Origin: a virus
Taxonomy: Duplodnaviria; Heunggongvirae; Uroviricota; Caudoviricetes
DNA length: 11,971 nt
IMG/VR virus record: IMGVR_UViG_2778261454_000011
Span: 1 to 11,971 of that record
Strand: one strand, 5' to 3'
How positions within the stretch are numbered: position 1 is the first letter of the stretch; each line of letters begins with the position of its first letter. A program made the translations under genes and the position numbers. Below, piece after piece: positions 1 to 11,971 of the stretch. A model generated the notes under the pieces. It searched no databases and had not been told where the DNA came from. It was given only the letters and a program-made list of their open reading frames with translations.

Positions 1-112
1 AACTGAAGTTGCCCTGAAAATGAAATTTTTTTGCACAACCGCAGAACTTTTCCGCAGGGCATCAGTCTTAATTAGTGCCACTGCTTTTCTTTGATGTCCC
101 CATTTTGTGGAG

Positions 113-155
113 CCCATCAACCCCGCCATTTCGGTTCAAGGTTGATGGGTTTTTT
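113..155 (+). terminator. Rho-independent terminator-like hairpin (CCCATCAACC ... GGTTGATGGG followed by TTTTTT)
   Basis: A 10-bp perfect inverted repeat at 113..122 and 140..149 is followed by a T6 tract at 150..155 on the + strand. It may mark the 3' end of a flanking host transcript or sRNA just outside the prophage end. Confidence 0.4.
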
Positions 156-235
156 GTTGCCTGAAATTTATGCCTTTTAAAATCATGATGTTAGAAGCAG
201 TGTTTTTTAACGATGGCGACAAATTGGCGGCAGAG

Positions 236-454
236 TCAAAGAGAGAGCGCCACCTGTCCTGATTTCATTGGATGCGGCTGAACCGGATTTGACTCTTTTG
301 GCGTTGCAATCGAACGAACAAAAGTTTCATGGGTAACAAAAGTATGGCTGCAGTTAATGTTCTGGCACTGGTTGTAACGCTCTTTGGTCAATGAAGATAC
401 CTGAAAACTGCTGCGAGTATGGGCGGCACTTCCACACAGTGGGCAAATCATCAT
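236..454 (-). CDS. ogr: Ogr/Delta-family zinc-finger late-gene transcriptional activator
   Basis: A 72-codon ORF starts at ATG 454..452 and translates to MMICPLCGSAAH...YNQCQNINCSHTF, with the C-x2-C ... C-x4-C spacing and size of P2 Ogr. It sits at the end of the element directly downstream of the D-like ORF, as in P2. The longer track ORF starting at 487 has no homology support for its first 11 codons. Confidence 0.85.
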   Translation of the reverse strand: MMICPLCGSAAHTRSSFQVSSLTKERYNQCQNINCSHTFVTHETFVRSIATPKESNPVQPHPMKSGQVALSL

Positions 455-544
455 TTTTCGAGTTCTCCCCATTTTTGCTAAATTCACAATAATGATACCG
501 CATTATTCCATTTTGAAAACTTAAAAGTTCTCCATTGCGAAGAA

Positions 545-1162
545 TCATTCAATTTCGAAATCATCAATCTTCACTTCAAGCTCCAGACTGGTCGTAAAAC
601 CGTTATCCGGGCTGACAGTATGCGTCAGGGTGGTAATGGTCCATTCCGCATCATCTATCGGCTGTTTAAAGCCACTGACCTTCACAGGCATTTCCGTGTA
701 GAGATCTGCCCGACCTTCTGCCAGTTGTAGCGAGAATGACGCAACGCCGCGTTGCAGGCGTTCCCACTGCATTTTCGCCGCTCGTTCGGCGTTGCTCCGG
801 TTGGCATAAGTGCGATTAAGTACCAGCACGTTTTCATCCGTACCCACCAGGTAATCGCCCTGCTTCGCTTCCGGCTCTTTCTTCTGCTTCTTAGTCCTGC
901 GCTTACGCTTCACCGTGGTGCTTTCTTTCTTCTCGGGTTCCAGATTGCCGCCCAGACTCAGCAGCACCACCTGCTCACCTTCCGATGGTCGCCACCATGT
1001 GCGGGCATTACCCGCGCGCAGCGTCAGCCAGTTAATCCAGTTGGTTTCAAGGTCGCCCGTTTTCACCCGACAAAGCCAGTGTTCCCGGTCCACTTCGGTG
1101 ACTACACCAGTGCGGATCAGGTTGGTGATAAGGCGCATGATTTCGGTTAATTGTGCGTTCAT
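545..1162 (-). CDS. Chimeric tail ORF: baseplate spike gpV N-terminal domain fused to a probable late control gene D C-terminal fragment
   Basis: The N-terminal ~75 aa (LIRTGVVTEVD...CRVKTGDLETNWINWLTLRAGNARTWWRPSEGEQVVLLSLGGNLE) match the gpV N-terminal domain of P2 as recalled. The rest follows a K/R-rich linker and does not resemble the gpV C-terminus. Its position immediately upstream of ogr is where the 3' end of D lies in P2. At 205 aa it is far too short for an intact D. Confidence 0.55.
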   Translation of the reverse strand: MNAQLTEIMRLITNLIRTGVVTEVDREHWLCRVKTGDLETNWINWLTLRAGNARTWWRPSEGEQVVLLSLGGNLEPEKKESTTVKRKRRTKKQKKEPEAKQGDYLVGTDENVLVLNRTYANRSNAERAAKMQWERLQRGVASFSLQLAEGRADLYTEMPVKVSGFKQPIDDAEWTITTLTHTVSPDNGFTTSLELEVKIDDFEIE

Positions 1163-1262
1163 AATTTAATCATGCCGAGATAAGATTGATAAAAAAACTC
1201 TTTAGTTTTGTGCCAGTTATGATACAAAGTGCATTTACTCATGGACTAAATAAAGGATTCCT

Positions 1263-2522
1263 ATGTTTAGATTATCTAGTGTCAAGATTGAAGGTTTTTG
1301 GGGAAGACTAAATGCATCATGTTCATTTAATGAAGATGTAAATATTATTATTGGTCGAAATGGGACCGGTAAAACAACCTTTATGAATATTCTTCACTCA
1401 GTTCTGGCATTAGAACTCGAATCACTAAATGAGAATAGTTTTGATAATGTAACAATAAAAATAAAAGAAGGAAGCAAAACTAAAACAATAAAAGTTGTGA
1501 GTAAATTTGACATAACTAAAGCTTTGCCTACGTTTGAATATACAATTTCTAGAAAGAAATATATTATCAGATCCTTTGAAGATCGTAGACTACCTATATA
1601 TATGAGGAGAAAATATCAGGAAGACGTTGAAAAACTTAAGTTAGAGTTAGATAAATTAGTTGCTTTATCTTCTCTATCAGTTTACCGACTTAGAAGCGGT
1701 GAAGATTTTGAAATCAGAGACAAATATGGCTCAAAATTAATCAACCCTGTTGATTACCGATTAGAACAATTATTGCAGAACCTAACAAAATATCAACTTT
1801 ATTTATCACAAAGAGCTCGTGATGTTTCTGCAATATTACAGAAAGAGGTTCTTGCTTCTATTCTTTATAGTAAAGAAGATGGTATCGATGACACATTTAA
1901 CTTTTCTTTTGATAAAGAAAAAGAACGTAGAAATTTAATAGCTGCATATTCTCAGCTTGGAGCTTTTGATAGTGATGTCAGAAAGAAGATTAACTTTCAC
2001 GTTGAATCTATTGCCAATACATTTGAAGAATTACGACTTGCAGAAAAAAATAACAGAAATATTTTAAATGTAGATTACAGATCATTTGAGGCATTACGAA
2101 AGACGCAAAGAATTATAAAGATGTCTTTAAAATCCGAGGAGAAAATAAAAAACATATTTCTTCCTATAAATCTATTTTTAGAAACATTACATGAGTTCAT
2201 AACCGATAAAAAATTTAATTTTATCTCCGGTGAGTTAGTAATAGAAAATGAGCATGGGCCGATTAGCCATAGTAATTTATCGTCTGGTGAAAAACAGCTA
2301 TTAATTCTTTTTATTGAAACTTTGCTACAGCAAAACAAACCTTTCATCTATCTTACTGATGAACCAGAATTATCGCTACATATTGCATGGCAACGAAAAA
2401 TAATACCTGCAATCAAACAACTTAATCCTAATGCGCAAATTATCGCCGCTACGCATTCACCAGAAGTGGCTTCTAAATATCGAAATGCAATCTTTGATAT
2501 GGAGAAATTGGTTCATGGATGA
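1263..2522 (+). CDS. ariA: ABC-type / AAA_15-AAA_21 family ATPase, PARIS AriA-like
   Basis: A 419-aa ORF with an AAGGA ribosome-binding site 7 nt upstream. It carries Walker A GRNGTGKTT (K37), an ABC-signature-like LSSGEKQ, Walker B FIYLTDEPELSLH and an H-loop AATHSPE. The region is strongly AT-rich compared with the flanking phage genes. Its stop overlaps the start of the next gene (ATGGATGA). Confidence 0.7.
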   Translation: MFRLSSVKIEGFWGRLNASCSFNEDVNIIIGRNGTGKTTFMNILHSVLALELESLNENSFDNVTIKIKEGSKTKTIKVVSKFDITKALPTFEYTISRKKYIIRSFEDRRLPIYMRRKYQEDVEKLKLELDKLVALSSLSVYRLRSGEDFEIRDKYGSKLINPVDYRLEQLLQNLTKYQLYLSQRARDVSAILQKEVLASILYSKEDGIDDTFNFSFDKEKERRNLIAAYSQLGAFDSDVRKKINFHVESIANTFEELRLAEKNNRNILNVDYRSFEALRKTQRIIKMSLKSEEKIKNIFLPINLFLETLHEFITDKKFNFISGELVIENEHGPISHSNLSSGEKQLLILFIETLLQQNKPFIYLTDEPELSLHIAWQRKIIPAIKQLNPNAQIIAATHSPEVASKYRNAIFDMEKLVHG

Positions 2523-3366
2523 TTTCCATTATTCTGCCGAAGCAGAAAATGTAATGAATTTATTTTACCAAGCTGAAGCCATGGTTTATGTTGAAGGCCC
2601 AGATGATATTTGCTTTTGGGAAATCATCTTTAATAAAGCTAGTTCATTAAAGGTTGAAATCAAAGATGTTGGCGGCTGTGAAGAATTAAAAAAATATATT
2701 GATAGAGTTACTGATGAAGATCTTCAAATTATAATTGCATGTGATGCAGACTTCACTACATTTGAAAATGAGGAAAACGCTGATAGTCGTATTGTAAAAA
2801 CTTATGGGCACTCCATCGAAAACACGTTTATTGACAAAACAGGCATATATAAGGCAATAAAAACTCTCGGAAAATTACCTCAAAAGATAATGAACGATGT
2901 CAACGTCGATTCTTGGACAGAAGACTTTTATACCAAAATGGACCCCCTAATAAAACTTGATATATACAATCATATTTATAGAAAAGGCATTTCAGTTATT
3001 GGTGACAGTGCAGATCGTTTCATGAAATCTAGAAAATCAAATGAAATTTGCGAGCAAAAAATCACGAGTTACAAAAACACCATCATTGAAAAATTAGGTG
3101 TGGAATCAGATAACATCGATTCATCTTTCAAATCAAAATCGATAGAATACAGAAAGTGGCTTAGAGGTCATTTTCTATTTTCTGCAGTACATAGGTACAT
3201 TAGCACAACTGCAGAAAAAAATGGAAAAAAAGTATCCTTATCATATGAATCATTATATTCCAATTTAATGAATACATTTGAATCCAATTTTACCAATACT
3301 CATATTGAGTTTAATCATTACCACGAAAAAATTAAAGCCATAAATATGCCACACGAAATGAAATAA
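2515..3366 (+). CDS. ariB: DUF4435 / TOPRIM-like nuclease partner, PARIS AriB-like
   Basis: A 283-aa ORF starting at ATG 2515 with a GGAG 7 nt upstream, overlapping the ariA stop by 8 nt. Conserved acidic motifs VYVEGPDD (E27), IIACDADF (D-x-D) and YGHSIEN fit a TOPRIM-type catalytic core. It has the same AT-rich composition as the ATPase gene. Confidence 0.65.
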   Translation: MDDFHYSAEAENVMNLFYQAEAMVYVEGPDDICFWEIIFNKASSLKVEIKDVGGCEELKKYIDRVTDEDLQIIIACDADFTTFENEENADSRIVKTYGHSIENTFIDKTGIYKAIKTLGKLPQKIMNDVNVDSWTEDFYTKMDPLIKLDIYNHIYRKGISVIGDSADRFMKSRKSNEICEQKITSYKNTIIEKLGVESDNIDSSFKSKSIEYRKWLRGHFLFSAVHRYISTTAEKNGKKVSLSYESLYSNLMNTFESNFTNTHIEFNHYHEKIKAINMPHEMK

Positions 3367-3367
3367 G

Positions 3368-3390
3368 AAAAAATACAGATGTATTTTTAT
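3368..3390. terminator. AT-rich hairpin between convergent ariB and gene S, possible bidirectional terminator
   Basis: AAAAATACA..TGTATTTTT inverted repeat lying between the ariB stop (3366) and the S stop (3392). The stem is A/T only, so it is weak. Confidence 0.25.
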
Positions 3391-3391
3391 A

Positions 3392-3838
3392 TTATTTAGA
3401 TAACCATTCAAATAGGGTATCCTTGATTTGATAATATTCTTTATCGTGGATACCCAATAGCTTACGCTCTGCGTAACGGACCTCAGGTCCTTTGCGACTG
3501 ACGCGATCACGCAGGCCGTAGTGATGAACGCGGGCAATGCGCTGCACCTTGCCTTCAAACTGCACGCTGGCAGAATCGGCGCTGGCGGCAGTTTTCAGGT
3601 ATTTTGTGGTGCGCAGCTTCGCAAACATCTGACGTTTGATGCGCCCCTTTTTGCTGCGTGCTGTTACTCTGCGCGGCTCATAACTGCTGCCATCTGGATT
3701 GCGCTGCATCCTGATGTTCTGCTGCTGTGTCCGGCGCAGTTCCTGCGCCAGCTGGCGCATCATGCGGCTTCTGGCGGCTGGCTCCAGATTCGCCAGCAAG
3801 GCACTCAGCCAGTCGTCCACTTTCTGCAGTTCAGCCAC
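3392..3838 (-). CDS. S: Phage tail completion protein S (P2 gpS family)
   Basis: A 148-aa ORF, MAELQKVDDWLSALLANLEPAARSRMMRQLAQELRRTQQQ..., matching the P2-like gpS virion morphogenesis family. It overlaps the upstream R gene by 8 nt, as in P2. Confidence 0.8.
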   Translation of the reverse strand: MAELQKVDDWLSALLANLEPAARSRMMRQLAQELRRTQQQNIRMQRNPDGSSYEPRRVTARSKKGRIKRQMFAKLRTTKYLKTAASADSASVQFEGKVQRIARVHHYGLRDRVSRKGPEVRYAERKLLGIHDKEYYQIKDTLFEWLSK

Positions 3839-4262
3839 GTTTTACCGTCCACATTTCTTCAGGTTCATCGGGTTCCGCTACCGCTTCAACACTCGACACA
3901 CTGCCGTCAGTGCTGACAAGCACACGCTCCGTCAGTTGCAGGTTCAGGCTGATATCACAGACATCGTTGCGCAGAATATCCACCTCAAAGGTGAATAGTT
4001 TTTCCCGTAACGTCGGGTTATTGATGGCATCAGGCTGGTTATCCCGCAGCCACAGCAAAACCGGGGCCATCAGCAGATTCTGGTCGCCGCTGAAATCCTC
4101 AATCACCACGTTCAGGGTGTAGCGGTACTCCCATGACATGGAGCTGGTCCCCGTGGCAACCAGCGAACCGTTATCCACAAACAGATGCAGTTTGTCCGGG
4201 TTATTGCGGACATAAGGCACCGCTTTATTGAGGGCGCGGCGCAGGGATTGTGGTTTGTTCAC
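3831..4262 (-). CDS. R: Phage tail completion protein R (P2 gpR family)
   Basis: The translation ...KPQSLRRALNKAVPYVRNNPDKLHLFVDNGS...LLWLRDNQPD... aligns with P2 gpR. The start is set at GTG 4262..4260, which is preceded by AGGAG with 7-nt spacing and matches where P2 gpR begins. The track ORF extends to a TTG at 4283. Confidence 0.75.
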   Translation of the reverse strand: MNKPQSLRRALNKAVPYVRNNPDKLHLFVDNGSLVATGTSSMSWEYRYTLNVVIEDFSGDQNLLMAPVLLWLRDNQPDAINNPTLREKLFTFEVDILRNDVCDISLNLQLTERVLVSTDGSVSSVEAVAEPDEPEEMWTVKRG

Positions 4263-4515
4263 TGTTTCGCTCCTGACACGCAATAATCATGTCCACTTTG
4301 TCTGCACAGGCCGCCCAGGCGGCCTCCGTTTCGTCCAGCAACGCGTTCAGATCACCGTTAGTGTGCGGCGCCGCCTGATCCAACCGACACGGCGTCACTC
4401 GCGGACAACCACTGACGGTAAGCTGCACCTCCGGTGAGTGTCGGACGTTTCCGCAGCCGGATAATGTCAGCAGGCAAAGGAGTATCAGCCCAGCGGCGTA
4501 AATCCTCGTTCTCAC
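4225..4515 (-). CDS. lysC: Outer-membrane spanin lipoprotein (LysC / Rz1-like)
   Basis: The ORF lies in an alternative frame overlapping the 3' part of lysB and the start of R. Its N-terminus MRTRIYAAGLILLCLLTLSGC has a signal peptide and an L-S-G-C lipobox. The GTG start is uncertain. Confidence 0.55.
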   Translation of the reverse strand: MRTRIYAAGLILLCLLTLSGCGNVRHSPEVQLTVSGCPRVTPCRLDQAAPHTNGDLNALLDETEAAWAACADKVDMIIACQERNSEQTTIPAPRPQ

Positions 4516-4786
4516 GTTTCAGTTCCTCGATCCGGTGTTGTCGTTGTCTCAGCAGCGCGCTGGTCTGTTCTGCTTCGGCATAGAGCCGCGCCTGCTCCCG
4601 GTTATTGGTTTCAGTCAGAATGGACAGGCTGATAAGCTGGCTGTTGCTCTTTGCCAGTGCCTGGCTTTTGCTCTGCAGCTCGTCTGCCTGCGTGCTGATG
4701 GTCTGGCTGGCATCAGCCAGCCGCCACGTCTGCCAGCCCAGCACCGCCAGTAATAACGCCAGCATAACCAGCAGCAACCGGTTCAT
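4358..4786 (-). CDS. lysB: Inner-membrane spanin (LysB / Rz-like)
   Basis: A 142-aa ORF with an N-terminal transmembrane segment (MNRLLLVMLALLLAVLGWQTW) followed by a Q/E/R-rich coiled-coil-like region. Its ATG overlaps the lysA stop. Size and position match P2 lysB. Confidence 0.7.
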   Translation of the reverse strand: MNRLLLVMLALLLAVLGWQTWRLADASQTISTQADELQSKSQALAKSNSQLISLSILTETNNREQARLYAEAEQTSALLRQRQHRIEELKRENEDLRRWADTPLPADIIRLRKRPTLTGGAAYRQWLSASDAVSVGSGGAAH

Positions 4787-5160
4787 GCTGCTACCTGTTG
4801 CGCCATCTGATTACGGGTGATCCAGAAGGCAATAACGGTCAGCAGATAAAAGACCAGGGTAATAGCCCACCCCGTCCAGGCGAGACTGACGACAATCAGC
4901 ACTCGCATCACCCAGCTGATAAATACGTTTTCTTTTCGGGTAATTGTCTTCAGCAAAGATGCCCTCAACTCCTGCCAGAGCGAGCCATTCTTAATTAACG
5001 CAGCCAGTGCTACCGGAATTACCGCCCATGTCAGTAAACAGGCTACCCAAACGCCGGACGCTGCCAGTACCGGAAAAATCCCCTGCGGATACACCATTGC
5101 TGCAATTAACAGCGCCATCCATAACATCAGAAACAGCCCGCTGATTAATTTCTTTTTCAT
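4783..5160 (-). CDS. lysA: Membrane protein LysA-like (lysis timing accessory)
   Basis: A 125-aa ORF starting at ATG 5160..5158 (MKKKLISGLFLMLWMALLIAA...) with several hydrophobic helices, lying immediately upstream of lysB. The longer track ORF to 5310 is a read-through extension antisense to the terminase fragment. Confidence 0.6.
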   Translation of the reverse strand: MKKKLISGLFLMLWMALLIAAMVYPQGIFPVLAASGVWVACLLTWAVIPVALAALIKNGSLWQELRASLLKTITRKENVFISWVMRVLIVVSLAWTGWAITLVFYLLTVIAFWITRNQMAQQVAA

Positions 5161-5179
5161 TTCAGTTTGCTCCCTGTAA

Positions 5180-6388
5180 ACACCAGGCCATCTCCCGCGC
5201 ACGGCGGTTAAGGCACAGGCCCACGTCTTTAAGCAGTACATCATCGACTTCGCCAAAGAAGTGGAGGTGGAGCTGAAAGGCGATCCGATGGTGCTTCCCA
5301 ACGGGGCCACGCTTTACTTCCTCGGCACCAATGCCCGCACGGCCCAGAGTTACCACGGCAACCTGTATCTGGATGAATATTTCTGGATACCGAAATTCCA
5401 GGAGCTGCGCAAAGTGGCTTCCGGTATGGCTATTCACAAAAAATGGCGACAAACCTATTTTTCCACGCCATCCAGCCTGACACACAGTGCTTATCCGTTC
5501 TGGTCCGGTGCGCTGTTCAACCGTGGGCGCAACAAAGCCGATAAGGTGGACATCGACCTGTCCCACAGCAATCTGGCCCCCGGCCTGCTGTGCGCAGACG
5601 GGCAATACCGCCAGATAGTCACCGTGGAAGATGCGGTGCGCGGCGGCTGTAACCTGTTCGACCTTGACCAGTTGCGCATGGAGTACAGCCCGGACGAATA
5701 CCAGAACCTGCTGATGTGCGAGTTTGTGGACGATCTCGCGTCCGTGTTCCCGCTCAGCGAGCTGCAGGCGTGCATGGTAGACAGCTGGGAAGTCTGGACT
5801 GACTTTCATGCACTGGCCCTGCGCCCGTTTGGCTGGCGCGAAGTATGGATCGGTTATGACCCGGCGAAAGGTACGCAGAATGGCGACAGCGCCGGATGCG
5901 TGGTGGTGGCACCGCCAGCCGTGCCGGGCGGCAAGTTCCGCATTCTTGAGCGTCACCAGTGGCGCGGAATGGACTTTCGCGCCCAGGCTGACGCCATCAA
6001 AAACCTGACCGAACAGTACAACGTGACCTACATCGGCATCGACTCGACAGGTGTCGGCCACGGGGTTTACGAGAACGTGAAAGCGTTTTTTCCAGCCGTC
6101 CGGGAGTTTGTCTACAACCCCAACGTTAAAAACGCCCTGGTACTCAAGGCCTACGACATTATCAGTCACCGCCGTCTGGAGTTTGACGCCGGACACACCG
6201 ACATAGCGCAGTCATTTATGGCAATCCGTCGCGCCACCACCGCCAGCGGCAACCGCCCGACCTATGAAGCCAGCCGCAGCGAAGAAGCCAGCCATGCCGA
6301 TCTGGCCTGGGCAACCATGCACGCACTGTTTAACGAACCGCTGCAGGGCGAGTCCGCCAATACCAGCAATATTGTGGAGATTTTTTGA
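5180..6388 (+). pseudogene. P: Terminase large (ATPase) subunit gpP, N-terminally truncated fragment
   Basis: The open frame begins just after a stop at 5177..5179 with no start codon. Its translation (...KAQAHVFKQYIIDFAKEVEVELKGDPMVLPNGATLYFLGTNARTAQSYHGNLYLDEYFWIPKF...) matches the central and C-terminal parts of P2-type terminase P. About 400 aa remain against roughly 590 for intact P, and the fragment abuts lysA on the opposite strand with about 20 bp between them. Confidence 0.7.
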
Positions 6389-7413
6389 TGGGAAAGAGTA
6401 AGAAAAAACGCGCTGCGGCGACGAATCAGATCCAGCATAAAAACCAAACTTCAGCCGAAGCATTCAGCTTCGGTGATCCCGTTCCTGTTCTGGACCGCCG
6501 CGAACTGCTGGACTATGTGGAATGCGTACAGATGGATCGTTGGTATGAGCCGCCTGTGAGTTTCGACGGACTGGCGCGAACCTTCCGCGCCGCCGTGCAT
6601 CACAGCTCACCGATTGCAGTGAAGTGCAACATTCTGACCAGCACCTACATCCCTCACCCGCTGCTCAGCCAGCAGGCTTTTTCGCGTTTTGTGCAGGACT
6701 ATCTGGTTTTTGGTAACGCCTACCTGGAGAAACGCACGAACCGCTTCGGTGAAGTTATCGCCCTTGAGCCTGCACTGGCAAAATACACCCGACGCGGGTT
6801 AGACCTGGATACCTACTGGTTTGTGCAATACGGTATGACAACCCAGCCGTATCAGTTCACGAAAGGCAGCATCTTTCATCTGATGGAACCCGATATCAAC
6901 CAGGAGATCTACGGCCTGCCCGGTTATCTTTCTGCCATTCCGTCAGCTCTGCTCAACGAGTCCGCCACGCTGTTCCGACGCAAATATTATATTAATGGCA
7001 GCCATGCAGGATTCATAATGTACATGACCGATGCCGCTCAGAACCAGGAGGATGTGAACAACCTCCGCAACGCGATGAAAAGCGCCAAAGGGCCAGGCAA
7101 CTTCCGCAACCTGTTTATGTACTCGCCTAACGGCAAAAAAGACGGGCTTCAGATCATCCCATTGTCAGAAGTCGCGGCGAAGGATGAGTTTTTGAATATC
7201 AAAAATGTTAGTCGCGATGACATGATGGCGGCACACCGCGTGCCGCCGCAGATGATGGGGATTATGCCTAATAATGTTGGGGGATTTGGGGATGTGGAGA
7301 AGGCAAGCAAAGTGTTTGTGCGGAATGAGTTAATGCCATTGCAAAAGAATTTTGAATCACTGAATAACTGGGCTGGAAAAGAAATTATTTCATTTAATGA
7401 CTACTGTTTTTAA
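6388..7413 (+). CDS. Q: Portal (capsid) protein gpQ
   Basis: A 341-aa ORF starting at ATG 6388 with GGAGA 8 nt upstream, overlapping the P stop (TGATG). Size and position downstream of P match P2 portal Q. Confidence 0.75.
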   Translation: MGKSKKKRAAATNQIQHKNQTSAEAFSFGDPVPVLDRRELLDYVECVQMDRWYEPPVSFDGLARTFRAAVHHSSPIAVKCNILTSTYIPHPLLSQQAFSRFVQDYLVFGNAYLEKRTNRFGEVIALEPALAKYTRRGLDLDTYWFVQYGMTTQPYQFTKGSIFHLMEPDINQEIYGLPGYLSAIPSALLNESATLFRRKYYINGSHAGFIMYMTDAAQNQEDVNNLRNAMKSAKGPGNFRNLFMYSPNGKKDGLQIIPLSEVAAKDEFLNIKNVSRDDMMAAHRVPPQMMGIMPNNVGGFGDVEKASKVFVRNELMPLQKNFESLNNWAGKEIISFNDYCF

Positions 7414-7442
7414 GAAAATGCGCATGGAAATTTTCATGCGCA
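7411..7442 (-). terminator. Rho-independent terminator hairpin downstream of the RT gene
   Basis: An 8-bp stem TGCGCATG (7419..7426) pairs with CATGCGCA (7435..7442) around an 8-nt loop. On the - strand it is followed by TTTTCTT. It lies between the convergent Q and RT genes. Confidence 0.45.
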
Positions 7443-7448
7443 CACACG

Positions 7449-8378
7449 TTATTCTGATACTTCAGGTTGATATCTCTGGATTTCATCAATCAGCTCTGAT
7501 GAATATTTCGCACAAAGCCTATTAATAAATAATGGCTCAACACTTTTGCAATACGATAAATATCCTTGAAGAAATAGCCTTTTCTTCTCATCAAGAGCCT
7601 CCCATTTAAAAATAAGCGATTTAACCATCCTTTTTTTATCTCTCCCTAAGGATACTCCACCATCTGTTGTCAAAGTCACACCCGTAACCATCATTTTATT
7701 TTTCTTTGACATATGCAGTGTCTTTTTTCTATTAATCCATAGTTTTGATGGGTATTTTAAAGTTTTTAAATTCGAGCGTAAAAAAGGTGGTATTTGCTTC
7801 AATACATTTTCTTCGTTTGTTGAGAAGTACATATCATCAGCATAGCGTGTATATGTTACACCTTTTGAAAGACAAAATTCATTCAATATATGATCTAATT
7901 CATAGCATATAGCATTGCTTACCACAGGGGAACTAACAGCACCCATAGTCAGTCTCCCGTTAAAGCATACTATTTTTACCAGCAAATCAGTATCATCCTT
8001 TGACCAATCATCACTGAAGAAATGCTTGTTGTCGTTTATAAATCTCTCAACATCACTTTTCTTAATTGAATCAAAAAAACCTTCAAAGTCCATCTTAAGC
8101 ATAAAACGTTTAGCTTTGTGAATGCTTGCATGTTTGAACACTGATGAACCCTGCTGATATGCTACAGCATTTGGATGAATCGGCAATTTCGACAGAACAT
8201 TATCATGAAGTAATCTCTGCAAAACTTTTAATTCTTTAGAGGGCTGATAGACGATTCTTGTCCCACCGCCTTTTTTAGGTACAGAAAATTTACCATAATG
8301 CGAGTTAGCATCATTTGCAACTTTTAATATAAAATCAGCTTCTAACAGTAAAACTTTAGCTAGATACTCAATTAACAT
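7449..8378 (-). CDS. Retron-type reverse transcriptase
   Basis: A 309-aa ORF with RT motifs: IVYQPSKELKVLQ (finger region), KMDFEGFFDSI (motif A), YTRYADDMYFS (Y-x-D-D catalytic motif C) and a VTG triplet (MMVTGVTL) typical of retron RTs. Its ATG lies 1 nt after the stop of the upstream ORF. Confidence 0.8.
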   Translation of the reverse strand: MLIEYLAKVLLLEADFILKVANDANSHYGKFSVPKKGGGTRIVYQPSKELKVLQRLLHDNVLSKLPIHPNAVAYQQGSSVFKHASIHKAKRFMLKMDFEGFFDSIKKSDVERFINDNKHFFSDDWSKDDTDLLVKIVCFNGRLTMGAVSSPVVSNAICYELDHILNEFCLSKGVTYTRYADDMYFSTNEENVLKQIPPFLRSNLKTLKYPSKLWINRKKTLHMSKKNKMMVTGVTLTTDGGVSLGRDKKRMVKSLIFKWEALDEKKRLFLQGYLSYCKSVEPLFINRLCAKYSSELIDEIQRYQPEVSE

Positions 8379-8379
8379 A

Positions 8380-8622
8380 TCACATGATCCTTTCTAATTC
8401 TGCTTTGAATTTAGATATCATTATTAAATCGGATAATGATCTAGCTCTACTTCGTTGAATACTTTCAACTAAATCTTTCATCTTTTCATGATTAAAAAAT
8501 TTAATATAATCGACACATGAATAATGGGTCACGCCCTCAAATCGACTTTCCTTAAAAATCCCAAGAGCAACTCCAATAGAAACAATAAATGAAATATTTT
8601 TATTAATTTTATAATTTATCAA
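8380..8622 (-). CDS. Small ORF in frame with the upstream effector ORF (possible C-terminal effector fragment with a hydrophobic segment)
   Basis: An 80-codon ORF with a TTG start. It is in the same reading frame as 8665..9432 and separated from it by 14 sense codons and a single TAA. It contains the hydrophobic stretch ISFIVSIGVALGIF. Confidence 0.35.
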   Translation of the reverse strand: MINYKINKNISFIVSIGVALGIFKESRFEGVTHYSCVDYIKFFNHEKMKDLVESIQRSRARSLSDLIMISKFKAELERIM

Positions 8623-8664
8623 CCTGCCTGTGATATTAAATATCTCAGGAATTGTTATTGTACA

Positions 8665-9432
8665 TTAAGAAGATATAAGAACGAGAACAATAAATAATAT
8701 TATTTTTGGTGATTTTTTGTAATCTCCTATTGAATTTGTATTAGTTATGTTTGATTGAACTTTCCTATTTAGCCTTTCATTTATTTTAGGCATACACGTT
8801 AAAATTGTCTCAAATTCAGTATAGATTGTAGGGCCAAATTTGGATTCACTATCAACCCATTTTACGGGCCCTGTATTGATAAATGACTTATGACTTTCAA
8901 ACTTTTTATCTAATATAGGAAGAAGTTTTTTACGTAAAACAGGACTTAATGAAAATGCGCCCAATTCAGCTACAGTGCCATAACTCTCTACGAGAATAAT
9001 TACCACATCAGAAAAATCCGCAAGCCATTCTTCAAGTGATAACGCATTCACATTACTATGAGTTCCTAAATTGCTAATTACTTCCCATGCTAATTCTGCT
9101 CGAAAAGTAACAAATTCTTTATGATGCTTAGCAATATATTTTTCCAGCACCCCTCTATTTGAACAATAAGTCTCATCTCCTCCACAAATAAATAATACTT
9201 TTGGCAGGATATAATTAAAAGAATTCAAGTTACTTGGAAAAAAACTTGAAATAAAATTTTCTTTTGCTCGTAAATATCTAGGATGTTTAAACCACATAAC
9301 AATTAATGCCCATACAAGAGTTCCCGAGACACAAGTTAGCCTGGTGTCTATAAATGACACAAGGCTAACTTGTGTCGAGATACCAAGCAATCCATACGAG
9401 TTGGCTAAACACCAACCACTAGAAAGTAACAT
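8665..9432 (-). CDS. Retron effector candidate with a nucleoside 2-deoxyribosyltransferase-like (NDT-like) domain
   Basis: A 255-aa ORF carrying ...KVLFICGGDE... and ...VVIILVESYGTVAELGAFS..., which resemble the NDT-family motifs including the D/E-x-G-T-x-x-E-L-G catalytic region. The ATG at 9432 is preceded by AGGAAAG. It ends in a hydrophobic tail (KIILFIVLVLISS) followed by TAA. The start codon is uncertain. Confidence 0.55.
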   Translation of the reverse strand: MLLSSGWCLANSYGLLGISTQVSLVSFIDTRLTCVSGTLVWALIVMWFKHPRYLRAKENFISSFFPSNLNSFNYILPKVLFICGGDETYCSNRGVLEKYIAKHHKEFVTFRAELAWEVISNLGTHSNVNALSLEEWLADFSDVVIILVESYGTVAELGAFSLSPVLRKKLLPILDKKFESHKSFINTGPVKWVDSESKFGPTIYTEFETILTCMPKINERLNRKVQSNITNTNSIGDYKKSPKIILFIVLVLISS

Positions 9433-9455
9433 ATTGAATGTACTTTCCTGCTAAG

Positions 9456-9700
9456 GGCACAGCTAGGCTAGCACTAACATACGGATTATTCAAGTGAATG
9501 CAGCTCAGCGCGCGCTCGTATCCCCGCCACGCCTGCCCGCTTTATGTAGTGGTTTTCATGCAGGTGCATGATCTACGCAAAAGCCCGCCAGTTCTGGCGG
9601 GCCTTAGCAAAAACGATCCTCAAACGATCATGCAATCTCATGCAGCATAGACATGCACAGACGAGTAAAGCGAATCGGACTTTACGCAAGGTGAACTCCT
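9456..9700 (-). ncRNA. Candidate retron non-coding RNA (msr-msd) region
   Basis: A non-coding stretch upstream of the effector and RT operon that is dense in nested inverted repeats: TGCATGATC / GATCATGCA arms (about 9558..9660) enclose a GCCCGCCAG-N4-CTGGCGGGC hairpin (9584..9605), and a 12-bp palindrome CAGCGCGCGCTG lies near 9506..9517. An 8-9 bp inverted pair TGCTAAGG / CCTTAGCA near 9604..9612 and 9456..9464 could be a1/a2-like flanking repeats. The boundaries are not defined. Confidence 0.35.
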
Positions 9701-9874
9701 CAGCGGGTATAATCAGTATGTCGGAAAATCTCTAAAAATAAATAATTCGGTTAACAGGTATGCTTACAAAAGCATATATTTGATTAAAAATCATGTAAGG
9801 GGGAGGATCTCAAACTGAATCGCCACGGTTTTACAAATTTCGATAGTCTCTCTAACGTTTCGGCTGAGGTCAAA

Positions 9875-10300
9875 ATGAAAAGCTTTTACGTATTAATTTT
9901 AATTCTGGTTGCAAGCTTTGTTAGCGTCCCAGTTCAGGCGGTAACAGCTAAAAACTATGAGAAAGGAACTAAAGCTCAACAGAAATCAATATCTTACCTT
10001 TCATGTGCATTCTATGGCAGTAGCACACAATTAGATCCTAGCTACACGGGGCAAGTACCTACAGCCGATATCAAGATATTACAGAAAGCAGCTTACCACG
10101 CTTACAACGATGCGCTCTCATACTTTGGCTATGAGGAACCAGATCACGAACAACGCATAATTGATTATGCTGAATTTGTGGCGTCGCAAGAAGCTGTGTT
10201 ATGGGATAAGCCGGGAATGAATGGAAAGCAGGTAACACTAATTGCTCGTTCTCTCTACAATGAGAGTAACTGTAACTTGTTACTGGACTCAATTAAGTAG
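9875..10300 (+). CDS. Secreted or periplasmic protein of unknown function (signal peptide)
   Basis: A 141-aa ORF with GAGG 6 nt upstream of the ATG. The N-terminus MKSFYVLILILVASFVSVPVQA-VTA is a typical Sec signal peptide with an A-x-A cleavage site. I recognise no family for the mature part. Confidence 0.6.
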   Translation: MKSFYVLILILVASFVSVPVQAVTAKNYEKGTKAQQKSISYLSCAFYGSSTQLDPSYTGQVPTADIKILQKAAYHAYNDALSYFGYEEPDHEQRIIDYAEFVASQEAVLWDKPGMNGKQVTLIARSLYNESNCNLLLDSIK

Positions 10301-10459
10301 GAAAAAGATGGTATTTTGCCCGTAGTTTCAACCTTAATCTCCGAACCTGTCGCAGAACGGGCATTCACTCATCAAATAAACGCCACACCTAACGCCTCAC
10401 TGTACTCGTTGTTCAACCTTGCTGACGCCAGAACCAAGTTCAGACGCCAGCAACTTTTC

Positions 10460-10693
10460 TTAATGCAGCCAGCTGTCGTCTTCCCACACCTTCTGCATAA
10501 TTTTCATCACTTGTTTTCTTTCTTCGTCCAGTTGCAGTCCGGTCAGTTCCACACCGTTAGAGCTACCTTTGCGGATGCGAATTACCGTTTTGGGATACAG
10601 GGGGCGCAGATTGCGGTAAAGCTCTGATTCAAGGGCGTCCAGGGTAGACTGGCTAATCTTCTGCTCTTTATCGATCATTATTTCAATGCGCAT
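10460..10693 (-). CDS. dinI: DinI-family protein (SOS-associated RecA modulator homolog)
   Basis: A 77-aa ORF from ATG 10693..10691 with GAGGTG 6 nt upstream. The translation MRIEIMIDKEQKISQSTLDALESELYRNL...VMKIMQKVWEDDSWL aligns along its length with E. coli DinI (MRIEVTIAKTSPLPAGAIDALAGELSRRI...ILQETWESADDW). The track ORF start at 10765 is an unsupported extension. Confidence 0.75.
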   Translation of the reverse strand: MRIEIMIDKEQKISQSTLDALESELYRNLRPLYPKTVIRIRKGSSNGVELTGLQLDEERKQVMKIMQKVWEDDSWLH

Positions 10694-10703
10694 AAAAGTC
10701 ACC

Positions 10704-10892
10704 TCAACTGATGACGTCCATTGAGCGGTTGTATTCGTGAGTTCTGATTTTTGCCATGAGTTCATCAGTCAACTCAGAAACCCACTGCAGAGCCAGCCCC
10801 TTCTCTTCATCACTACACTCACTAGCCGCTACAAGCTTAAGAAAAAAATCAATGCGCTGGAGCTTCAAAGACTCCAAAAAATAGTCCTGCAT
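10704..10892 (-). CDS. Hypothetical 62-aa protein, first gene of a LexA-box-controlled operon
   Basis: A strong AGGAGG 4 nt upstream of ATG 10892. It ends 11 nt before the dinI-like start and lies directly downstream of the LexA boxes. No family was recognised. Confidence 0.5.
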   Translation of the reverse strand: MQDYFLESLKLQRIDFFLKLVAASECSDEEKGLALQWVSELTDELMAKIRTHEYNRSMDVIS

Positions 10893-10917
10893 CTTTCCTC
10901 CTATGACACCAAAACAA

Positions 10918-10950
10918 TACTGTATATATAATCACTGTTTATATTTACAG
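10918..10950. promoter_or_regulatory. LexA (SOS) operator: one consensus box plus an overlapping half-site
   Basis: CTGTTTATATTTACAG at 10935..10950 is a perfect CTGT-N8-ACAG SOS box with an AT-rich spacer. An overlapping TACTGTATATATAA left half-site lies at 10918..10931. Both sit in an AT-rich promoter-like region upstream of the orf62 and dinI-like genes on the - strand. Confidence 0.65.
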
Positions 10951-11212
10951 TATATAATAATCTTACTGATGTAAAACGTTTTTTTACGTTCATCAGCCTG
11001 ATATACCTGGTATTATTAAGAGCACGAATTGTTAACCCGCGTAATTAATACAGCTCCCGCCACTTATCATCTTCCTGCAAACGCTGGTTCCGATAGAAGA
11101 TACGCAGGCCTGCTCCTGACGGAATACTGCCGCCGCGAAGGAGTAAATCGACTTCTTTCTCGCTGCCATCAAATCCTCTGGACTTCAGTTCATAGACGAG
11201 CTGCTGTCGCTG

Positions 11213-11971
11213 ATGGTCTGTAATCCCCTTGCAACCGATCTCACATCTAAAATGTTTGCCCATTATCGAGATAAACGACTGACAGGTGAGATCTACTTCA
11301 GCGAGAAATGGAAGAAAGGGGCCAGCCCGGTCACCATTAACCTGGAGCAAAGCTATCTAAGTAGTGTTTTTAGCGAACTATCCCGCCTGGGCGAATGGTC
11401 GTATCCAAACCCACTGGAGAACATGCGAAAATTCACCATCGCAGAAAAAGAGATGGCATGGCTTACCCATGAGCAGATTGTTGAACTGCTGGATGATTGC
11501 AAACGTCAGGACCCAATTCTGGCACTGGTAGTCAAGATATGCTTAAGCACAGGCGCACGCTGGCGAGAAGCAATAAACCTTACCCGCTCACAGGTGACCA
11601 AATACCGAATTACCTTTGTCAGAACGAAGGGGAAGAAAAACAGAAGCATCCCTATCAGTAAAGAGCTTTACGAAGAGATCATGGCGCTCGATGGGTTCAA
11701 TTTCTTCACAGACTGCTATTTTCAATTTTTATCCGTGATGGAAAAAACGTCTATCGTGCTCCCTCGCGGTCAACTGACACACGTTCTGCGCCATACGTTT
11801 GCGGCGCATTTTATGATGTCGGGTGGAAATATCCTTGCTTTGCAAAAAATCCTCGGACATCACGACATAAAAATGACTATGCGTTACGCACATCTAGCAC
11901 CGGATCACCTGGAAACTGCATTACGGTTTAATCCGCTGGCAACACTACCAACATCAATAGCAAGTTTTTGA
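11213..11971 (+). CDS. int: Tyrosine recombinase / P2-type integrase, catalytic C-terminal part (N-terminus missing or frameshifted)
   Basis: The translation contains the catalytic signature of tyrosine recombinases: ...[11 protein letters not shown]... (Arg), ...[17 protein letters not shown]... (His-x-x-Arg), ...[15 protein letters not shown] (His, Tyr). It aligns with the C-terminal roughly 240 aa of P2 Int as recalled. The frame has an in-frame stop at 11144 and no arm-binding N-terminal domain. It runs to the window end at a TGA. Confidence 0.75.

Follow-up and report, generated by a model that had tools for sequence, protein, structure and literature searches.

A predicted periplasmic protein of a rare enterobacterial family, encoded in a 730-bp cassette beside the cos region of a 186/P2-type prophage remnant

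The T4 protein Spackle (Sp, gp61.3) is phage-encoded and carries a cleaved periplasmic signal; it is a small, non-enzymatic helical bundle of 75 aa, has one disulfide that joins an N-proximal to a C-proximal cysteine, and inhibits the gp5 lysozyme stoichiometrically (PMC7677548). Glo of the Vibrio phage K139 is annotated as 'periplasmic protein; involved in phage exclusion', and orf97 of phage 186 carries the annotation 'expression from plasmid blocks 186 infection'. Reidl and Mekalanos are said to have first reported Glo, in 1995, as a virulence-associated factor. The old and tin genes of phage P2 are cargo of the cos-proximal variable region in which the gene described below also lies; Old and Tin are cytoplasmic, and surveys of defence hotspots have been mostly on cytoplasmic systems. 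Between gpA and gpQ, this region forms a hotspot for anti-phage genes that was defined by Rousset et al. 2022 (PMC9122126). Here we analyse a stretch of 11,971 nt of Caudoviricetes DNA (the window; IMG/VR record IMGVR_UViG_2778261454_000011, positions 1 to 11,971), in which an open reading frame (ORF) of 141 codons with an ATG start occupies 9875..10300 on the plus strand, stop included. A first-pass annotation, made from the sequence alone, had read it as an orphan secreted protein, possibly an exclusion, inhibitor or immunity factor, lying between a retron and an SOS module. We find a genuine, ordinary-looking prophage accessory gene of a rare, uncharacterised family, for which that reading is plausible and the retron framing incidental. 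It is most likely a moron, a lysogenic-conversion gene that stands alone, and its product would bind a target in the periplasm and serve superinfection exclusion or envelope immunity.

The gene, its product and its family

The ORF is a real gene under purifying selection and not a chance ORF, because it is found intact and at no less than 99% identity in 101 of 5426 complete E. coli genomes, has orthologues in Klebsiella aerogenes, in Hafnia alvei and on a further set of contigs (protein identities of 91% and 77%, the Hafnia copy being at 77%) and also in Enterobacter roggenkampii, and gives pairwise ratios of non-synonymous to synonymous substitution rates (dN/dS) of 0.15-0.27 among four lineages, including those that lack the upstream partner gene discussed below. 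The RefSeq label is 'hypothetical protein' in every listed record among those 101 genomes. One could still suppose that the ORF is a decaying, non-functional hitch-hiker from a truncated larger module, since the upstream partner has been reduced to a stub and the window is a deletion-ridden prophage remnant with a stop codon in its retron effector. However, the purifying selection across four lineages, the intact ORF in 101 genomes, and the retention of the signal peptide, both conserved cysteines and the core motif down to 24% identity make this supposition very improbable.

The signals reported in the first-pass annotation hold on inspection. A Shine-Dalgarno sequence GAGG (9866..9869, plus strand), which is kept in the Klebsiella-type loci, lies 5 nt ahead of the ATG and makes a good ribosome-binding site. 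Codons 1-22 (9875..9940, plus strand) encode a predicted Sec/signal peptidase I signal peptide, MKSFYVLILILVASFVSVPVQA, which in a rule-based analysis of its n-, h- and c-regions has one lysine, a 10-residue hydrophobic core (Kyte-Doolittle mean 3.3) and V-Q-A before a cut after residue 22, where the mature protein begins with VT; there is no lipobox. The same layout recurs in all 21 family members that were checked. The mature part, residues 23-141, has 119 aa, a mass of 13.3 kDa and an isoelectric point of 5.3.

As to the family, the first-pass annotation recognised none for the mature sequence, and this stands in so far as searches of Pfam, NCBIfam and PADLOC with the 141-aa protein returned no match and hence no characterised family; it does not stand for phrog_7437 (PHROG 7437, unknown function), which matched over the full length (residues 1-141 on profile positions 1-141 of 141, E 1.5e-98). 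No match came from a sequence-profile search of the PDB or from tblastn against phage records with the same protein, nor from an Rfam scan of window positions 9150-10500, and a literature search by protein accession gave no result. A word-indexed search of 5.8 billion proteins returned close enterobacterial homologues only, and an exhaustive profile search of 1.84 billion representatives returned full-length relatives of 126-145 aa at 24-40% identity, together with one further relative predicted at 168 aa with an upstream extension. All of these are labelled 'hypothetical', and the sources named are Escherichia, Klebsiella, Siccibacter, Rahnella, Hafnia, Enterobacter, Salmonella and Citrobacter. 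A scan of contigs representing one genome per species gave no relatives, and the matches in a metagenome scan were mostly E. coli-type copies. The protein is not the orphan it was taken for: it belongs to a rare small family, carried on phages, prophages and plasmids and confined, so far as seen, to Enterobacterales.

The cysteines C44 and C133 are conserved in all full-length members, as are across the family the signal peptide, W110, Y128, N132 and a motif DYAEFVASQEAVLWDKPGMN…NCxLLLxxIK; the family alignment contains no conserved constellation of catalytic-looking residues. AlphaFold2, run on the 119 mature residues with 21 sequences, gave a five-helix bundle at high confidence (predicted local distance difference test, pLDDT, 95.6; predicted template modelling score, pTM, 0.88). 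This model supersedes an earlier one that included the signal peptide, used 7 sequences, reached pLDDT 76 and drew membrane-protein matches. A fold search of BFVD with the model returned nothing at E<=0.001, neither the mature-protein model nor the profile had a specific match in PDB or BFVD, and the periplasmic lysozyme inhibitors Ivy, MliC/PliC, PliG and LprI/DUF1311 were matched neither by family profile nor by fold. Because the model has five helices, two cysteines are conserved, there is no catalytic constellation and no specific fold or profile match, the protein looks like a small, non-enzymatic periplasmic binding module, probably stabilised by a disulfide. One homologue, from Enterobacter roggenkampii (P0005), begins MKLNYLISLLIGLSAC…, has a lipobox-like LSAC and ends early, at 125 aa; hence at least one family member may be a lipoprotein and not a soluble periplasmic protein.

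The cassette and a lost upstream partner

The gene lies in a discrete, low-GC insertion of 730 bp (9659..10388) that holds a promoter-like site, a stub of another gene and the ORF. This is so because in a gene-less sibling prophage, that of E. coli FDAARGOS_1287, the flanks 9504-9658 and 10389-10950 are only 7 bp apart, with the same cos region and DinI operon, and the variable cargo region of a prophage named in the first-pass annotation is borne out. The G+C fraction is 0.38 in the upstream part and 0.41 in the ORF, against 0.55 in the cos region and 0.54 in the terminase and portal genes. A predicted sigma-70 promoter, TTAACA-18-TATATT (9751..9780, plus strand; 10 of 12 consensus positions), lies ∼95 nt upstream of the ATG and is largely conserved as CTAACA/TATGTT in Klebsiella-type loci. 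Presence in one prophage and absence from its sibling, exact breakpoints between conserved cos and DinI, a GC content that departs from the backbone and a promoter-like site within the insert are together what classically marks a moron.

Directly upstream of the ORF we found a degraded 3′ stub of a gene for a membrane protein of ∼215 aa (9769..9846, plus strand), recognised by nucleotide homology to a Hafnia locus that begins at 9769. The stub reads KGEDLK and FYKFR before a stop, versus GKWEDLKPWEFYRFRDAL before the stop in Hafnia, and corresponds to the last ∼26 codons of the partner gene, in the window as in the Klebsiella-type loci; loci L007-L012 have a stub of 28 codons at 64% identity. 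Therefore the E. coli cassette probably descends from a two-gene unit whose first gene was lost. In this it differs from typical phage morons, as it does in that no clear terminator was found, and because of the partner stub it is better described as a truncated two-gene unit than as a pristine single-gene moron.

Homologous membrane proteins of ∼215 and 219 aa (29% identity, E 3e-18) directly precede the gene in a Hafnia P2-like phage and in a K. aerogenes prophage, where the adjoining family members are very divergent from each other. The partner has two N-terminal transmembrane helices and a C-terminal domain of ∼150 aa that is probably periplasmic. Only two homologues of the partner were found beyond Hafnia, one in K. 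aerogenes and one on a metagenomic contig (P0050, locus L064), the latter followed by an unrelated 163-aa protein. The pairing is thus not obligatory.

This arrangement raises the alternative that the 141-aa protein is the antidote or regulator of a membrane-anchored periplasmic partner, as in toxin/immunity pairs or the T4 holin T and antiholin RI, so that the E. coli gene would be an orphan immunity gene that acts against relatives of the partner, or a leftover. The membrane proteins directly upstream of two such divergent members and the stub directly upstream of the ORF in the window and the Klebsiella-type loci speak for it, and toxin-then-immunity is a typical gene order. We regard it as unlikely nevertheless, given the non-obligatory pairing, the many family contexts that have no partner, the purifying selection that still acts on the partner-less E. 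coli and Klebsiella copies (dN/dS 0.17), and the partner itself, which in searches for its family matched no holin, toxin or other family.

The contexts of the relatives are diverse. The Hafnia copy occupies the interval from tail gene S to tail gene V of its P2-like phage, with the PADLOC candidate PDC-S11 next to it, and another copy at 77% follows the tail spike at the end of a lambdoid-type prophage. In the Hafnia alvei prophage (L002) the 215-aa protein with two transmembrane helices is encoded upstream of the homologue at 9333-9980, and downstream, at 10624-11640, is a gene for a 338-aa NucS/Cas4-like protein that matches PDC-S11 at E 8e-110. More distant members lie beside integrases, in early operons of other prophages, on IncFIB non-mobilisable plasmids of ∼110 kb, and on an 84-kb record beside insertion sequences (IS) and mer genes. 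No partner gene is common to all family contexts, and most of them lack the ∼215-aa membrane protein.

The cos site, the neighbouring modules and the prophage remnant

The left boundary of the cassette is a conserved cos region of the 186/P2 type (9504..9658, minus strand), recognised by alignment to the joined ends of phage 186. On the minus strand, …CATAAAGCGGGCA followed directly by GGCGTGGCGGGGATACGAG… aligns with the joined right and left ends of phage 186 at 78% over 93 nt, and the 19-nt cohesive end GGCGTGGCGGGGATACGAG (9533 to 9515) is identical to that of phage 186 at 14 of 19 bases. The region 9504-9658 occurs in 1275 E. coli genomes, whatever adjoins it, and in 45 of the 48 fetched loci with close copies of the gene cos is directly upstream. 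A reading of 9477-9721 as the retron msr-msd (a 13-nt inverted repeat at 9477-9489/9709-9721 with a hairpin at 9565-9634) was rejected, because 9504-9658 is conserved in those 1275 genomes regardless of the cassette and aligns to the phage 186 joined ends; the region is cos.

Because cos lies between the retron and the gene, the two are at opposite genome ends in packaged DNA: the retron cassette is at the left end, beside the portal gene, and the 141-aa gene is the last gene at the right end. The gpA-gpQ hotspot is in fact divided by cos into two variable slots that are independent of each other, which matters when its contents are sorted into 'systems'. Of the two, that on the DinI/gpA side is empty in FDAARGOS_1287 and is otherwise occupied by the 141-aa cassette, by orf97 in phage 186 or by a 225-aa ORF in the Klebsiella phage 4LV2017. 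It thus holds envelope-directed or exclusion genes in three phages, namely the 141-aa gene, the lipoprotein-like ORF and 186 orf97. The ORF in 4LV2017 (L022, 4275-4952, minus strand) has a lipoprotein signal, …ILTGC…, and RefSeq annotates a 62-aa piece of it only. In the supplement of Rousset et al. (PMC9122126), the 141-aa protein (WP_021561694 / WP_000834899) appears among the P2 hotspot loci only as 'hypothetical'.

The gene is part of neither the retron nor the SOS operon. Both neighbours are transcribed against it, as the first-pass annotation had said: the retron effector (8380-9432) and the DinI-like gene (10460..10693; Pfam DinI, E 1.3e-22) are on the minus strand, and the 141-aa gene is on the plus strand. 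The placement between them fails as a functional context, with cos (9515-9533) separating the gene from the retron and the two adjoining in no more than 2 of the 101 E. coli genomes that carry the gene. One might suppose that the gene is an accessory to the retron next to it (type II-A, St85), or to any defence cassette in that place, but physical proximity in this window is the only argument. Apart from cos and the low contiguity, only 8 E. coli genomes are matched by the retron effector segment; in the 43 loci with enough sequence the far side of cos carries 26 different cassettes, the named ones including AIPR, nSTAND1, a DUF4325 system, a P-loop/KAP NTPase, HIRAN and DUF262; the same retron occurs in 4LV2017, which lacks the 141-aa gene; and a homologue is also found far from any cassette. 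This possibility is effectively refuted by the distribution.

On the other side, and outside the cassette, the DinI-like gene and a 62-aa gene (phrog_698; 10704..10892, minus strand) form an operon behind a perfect LexA box CTGTTTATATTTACAG (10935..10950), which lies upstream of both genes. The layout resembles that of the p95-tum SOS operon of phage 186. DinI itself is optional at the locus, since in Klebsiella-type loci the gene is followed directly by the 62-aa gene and DinI is missing. Because the operon is convergent toward the 141-aa ORF, SOS induction could yield antisense RNA to the gene.

The window as a whole is what deletions have left of a 186/P2-type prophage whose integration site lies between ybjL/rybB and rcdA. 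The host flank on the ybjL side contains the RybB small RNA (80-158, plus strand; Rfam RF00110, 105 bits). Its matches to E. coli GF31 and EC21Z-063 fall into three blocks, and the junctions are near 940, 5209 and 11200-11224. Three internal deletions relative to intact relatives have left a remnant that is mostly cargo (PARIS, retron, 141-aa gene and DinI). Retained are ogr, a V′-′D fusion ORF, PARIS-like AriA/AriB, the tail genes R and S, part of the lysis genes, part of the terminase, the portal, the type II-A (St85) retron, the 141-aa gene, the DinI-like and 62-aa genes, and the 3′ part of the integrase gene. The fusion ORF (545-1162, minus strand), a product of one deletion, joins the gpV N-terminus in frame to the gpD C-terminus. 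The PARIS-like pair, AriA (AAA_21/AAA_15) and AriB (DUF4435), is at 1263-3366 on the plus strand; in the intact relative EC21Z-063 PARIS lies between tail genes V and S, the slot that holds the pair of 215-aa and 141-aa genes and PDC-S11 in the Hafnia phage.

Window 5209-11224 differs from GF31 at 15 nucleotides, and 14 of these lie within an 86-nt patch (8640-8725) of the retron NDT effector gene. Nine of the 14 replace A of the reference by T on the plus strand, and the patch alters 8 amino acids and brings in a TAA stop at codon 256 (8665-8667). This allele is in no complete E. coli genome, the best match being 94%, and may reflect a recombination patch, local hypermutation or sequencing error. 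Inside the N-terminus of what RefSeq annotates as 'retron St85 effector' we noted a near-perfect, msd-like hairpin with 21-bp arms and a fold z-score of -4 (9328-9376, minus strand), and the NDT domain starts only at residue 57 of that annotated protein. The retron msr-msd probably occupies 9300-9500 on the minus strand, and the start given for the effector probably lies too far upstream.

Proposed function and comparison with known systems

We propose that in the lysogen the gene would be transcribed from its own sigma-70 promoter, with the convergent DinI operon repressed by LexA. On export the product would be cut after VQA22, a disulfide between C44 and C133 would stabilise it, and it would then act alone as a stoichiometric periplasmic binder that protects the envelope of the lysogen. 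Envelope protection by the 141-aa product is, on this analysis, probable. Its more specific form, superinfection exclusion through a block of the periplasmic step of genome delivery by incoming phages, is tentatively favoured, because exclusion genes abound in the slot and the hotspots, almost every context derives from a phage, and T4 Spackle and K139 Glo are precedents. The homologues recur in phage defence hotspots, both in the cos-proximal gpA-gpQ region and in the Hafnia S-V tail slot beside PDC-S11.

Several points weigh against this proposal. The signal peptide call comes from a rule-based check and not from a trained predictor; a search downstream of the ORF found no convincing intrinsic terminator; guilt by association with a hotspot is weak for a single small gene; and the distant contexts, on plasmids by IS and mer genes and in early operons, fit other roles equally well. 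The roles of exclusion, inhibitor and immunity that the first-pass annotation had offered all suit the context and the predicted architecture, and no homology or structural match favours any one.

The gene might instead be a host-fitness or virulence conversion factor apart from phage or toxin defence, which the mobile element would carry for its benefit to the lysogen; examples would be a protein with a stress-related or chaperone-like function in the periplasm, or one that modulates an envelope signalling or transport protein. The occurrence of the family on several kinds of mobile element, including the 84-kb record by mer/IS and IncFIB phage-plasmid-like replicons, would suit such a role, as would a product that is small, acidic, non-enzymatic-looking and predicted periplasmic; Glo, too, is reportedly virulence-associated. 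We give this a minor share of the probability. Orphan periplasmic immunity against the peptidoglycan-degrading toxins of competitors, such as type VI secretion amidases (for example Tae4) or pesticin- and colicin M-like bacteriocins, seems quite improbable. Returning to a periplasmic protective role, it is conceivable, if rather doubtful, that the family is a class of periplasmic exclusion or immunity proteins that had gone unrecognised and whose helical fold lacks a close relative among solved structures. It would once have been the soluble half of a two-gene envelope module, made up of a membrane-anchored periplasmic protein and an exported binder, and would now serve singly as a protective gene at several defence hotspots, in P2/186-type phages, in other enterobacterial phages and in phage-plasmids. 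If the gene does block phage entry or neutralise envelope toxins, it would add periplasmic single-gene protection to the cargo repertoire of P2/186 phages and provide a new small fold for inhibitor studies; if it is an ordinary conversion gene, a clean annotation is still gained.

Against the described systems, the 141-aa protein resembles T4 Spackle in being a predicted exported helical bundle with two conserved cysteines that would form a disulfide. It resembles K139 Glo in that Glo is encoded by a P2-family (Peduoviridae) temperate phage at an accessory position and has 137 aa, a signal peptide and two cysteines in its mature part. Neither sequence nor fold homology to Spackle was found when tested, and homology to Glo was rejected, as hhalign of the family profile against Glo gave a probability of 3.8% with only the signal peptide aligned. 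The proposal is thus that the protein would 'work like' these two, not that it is a member of their families. The glo gene, in addition, lies in the int-cI lysogenic operon and not by cos, and in another host clade. By position the nearest counterpart is orf97 of phage 186, which occupies the same slot, between tum (DinI-like and LexA-controlled) and cos; however, orf97 has 243 aa, is co-directional with tum on the p95 transcript and, the 141-aa protein having no match among the phage records, is unrelated in sequence. Compared with orf97, old and tin, the 141-aa gene is set apart by its orientation, convergent to the SOS operon, and by a product that is predicted to be exported.
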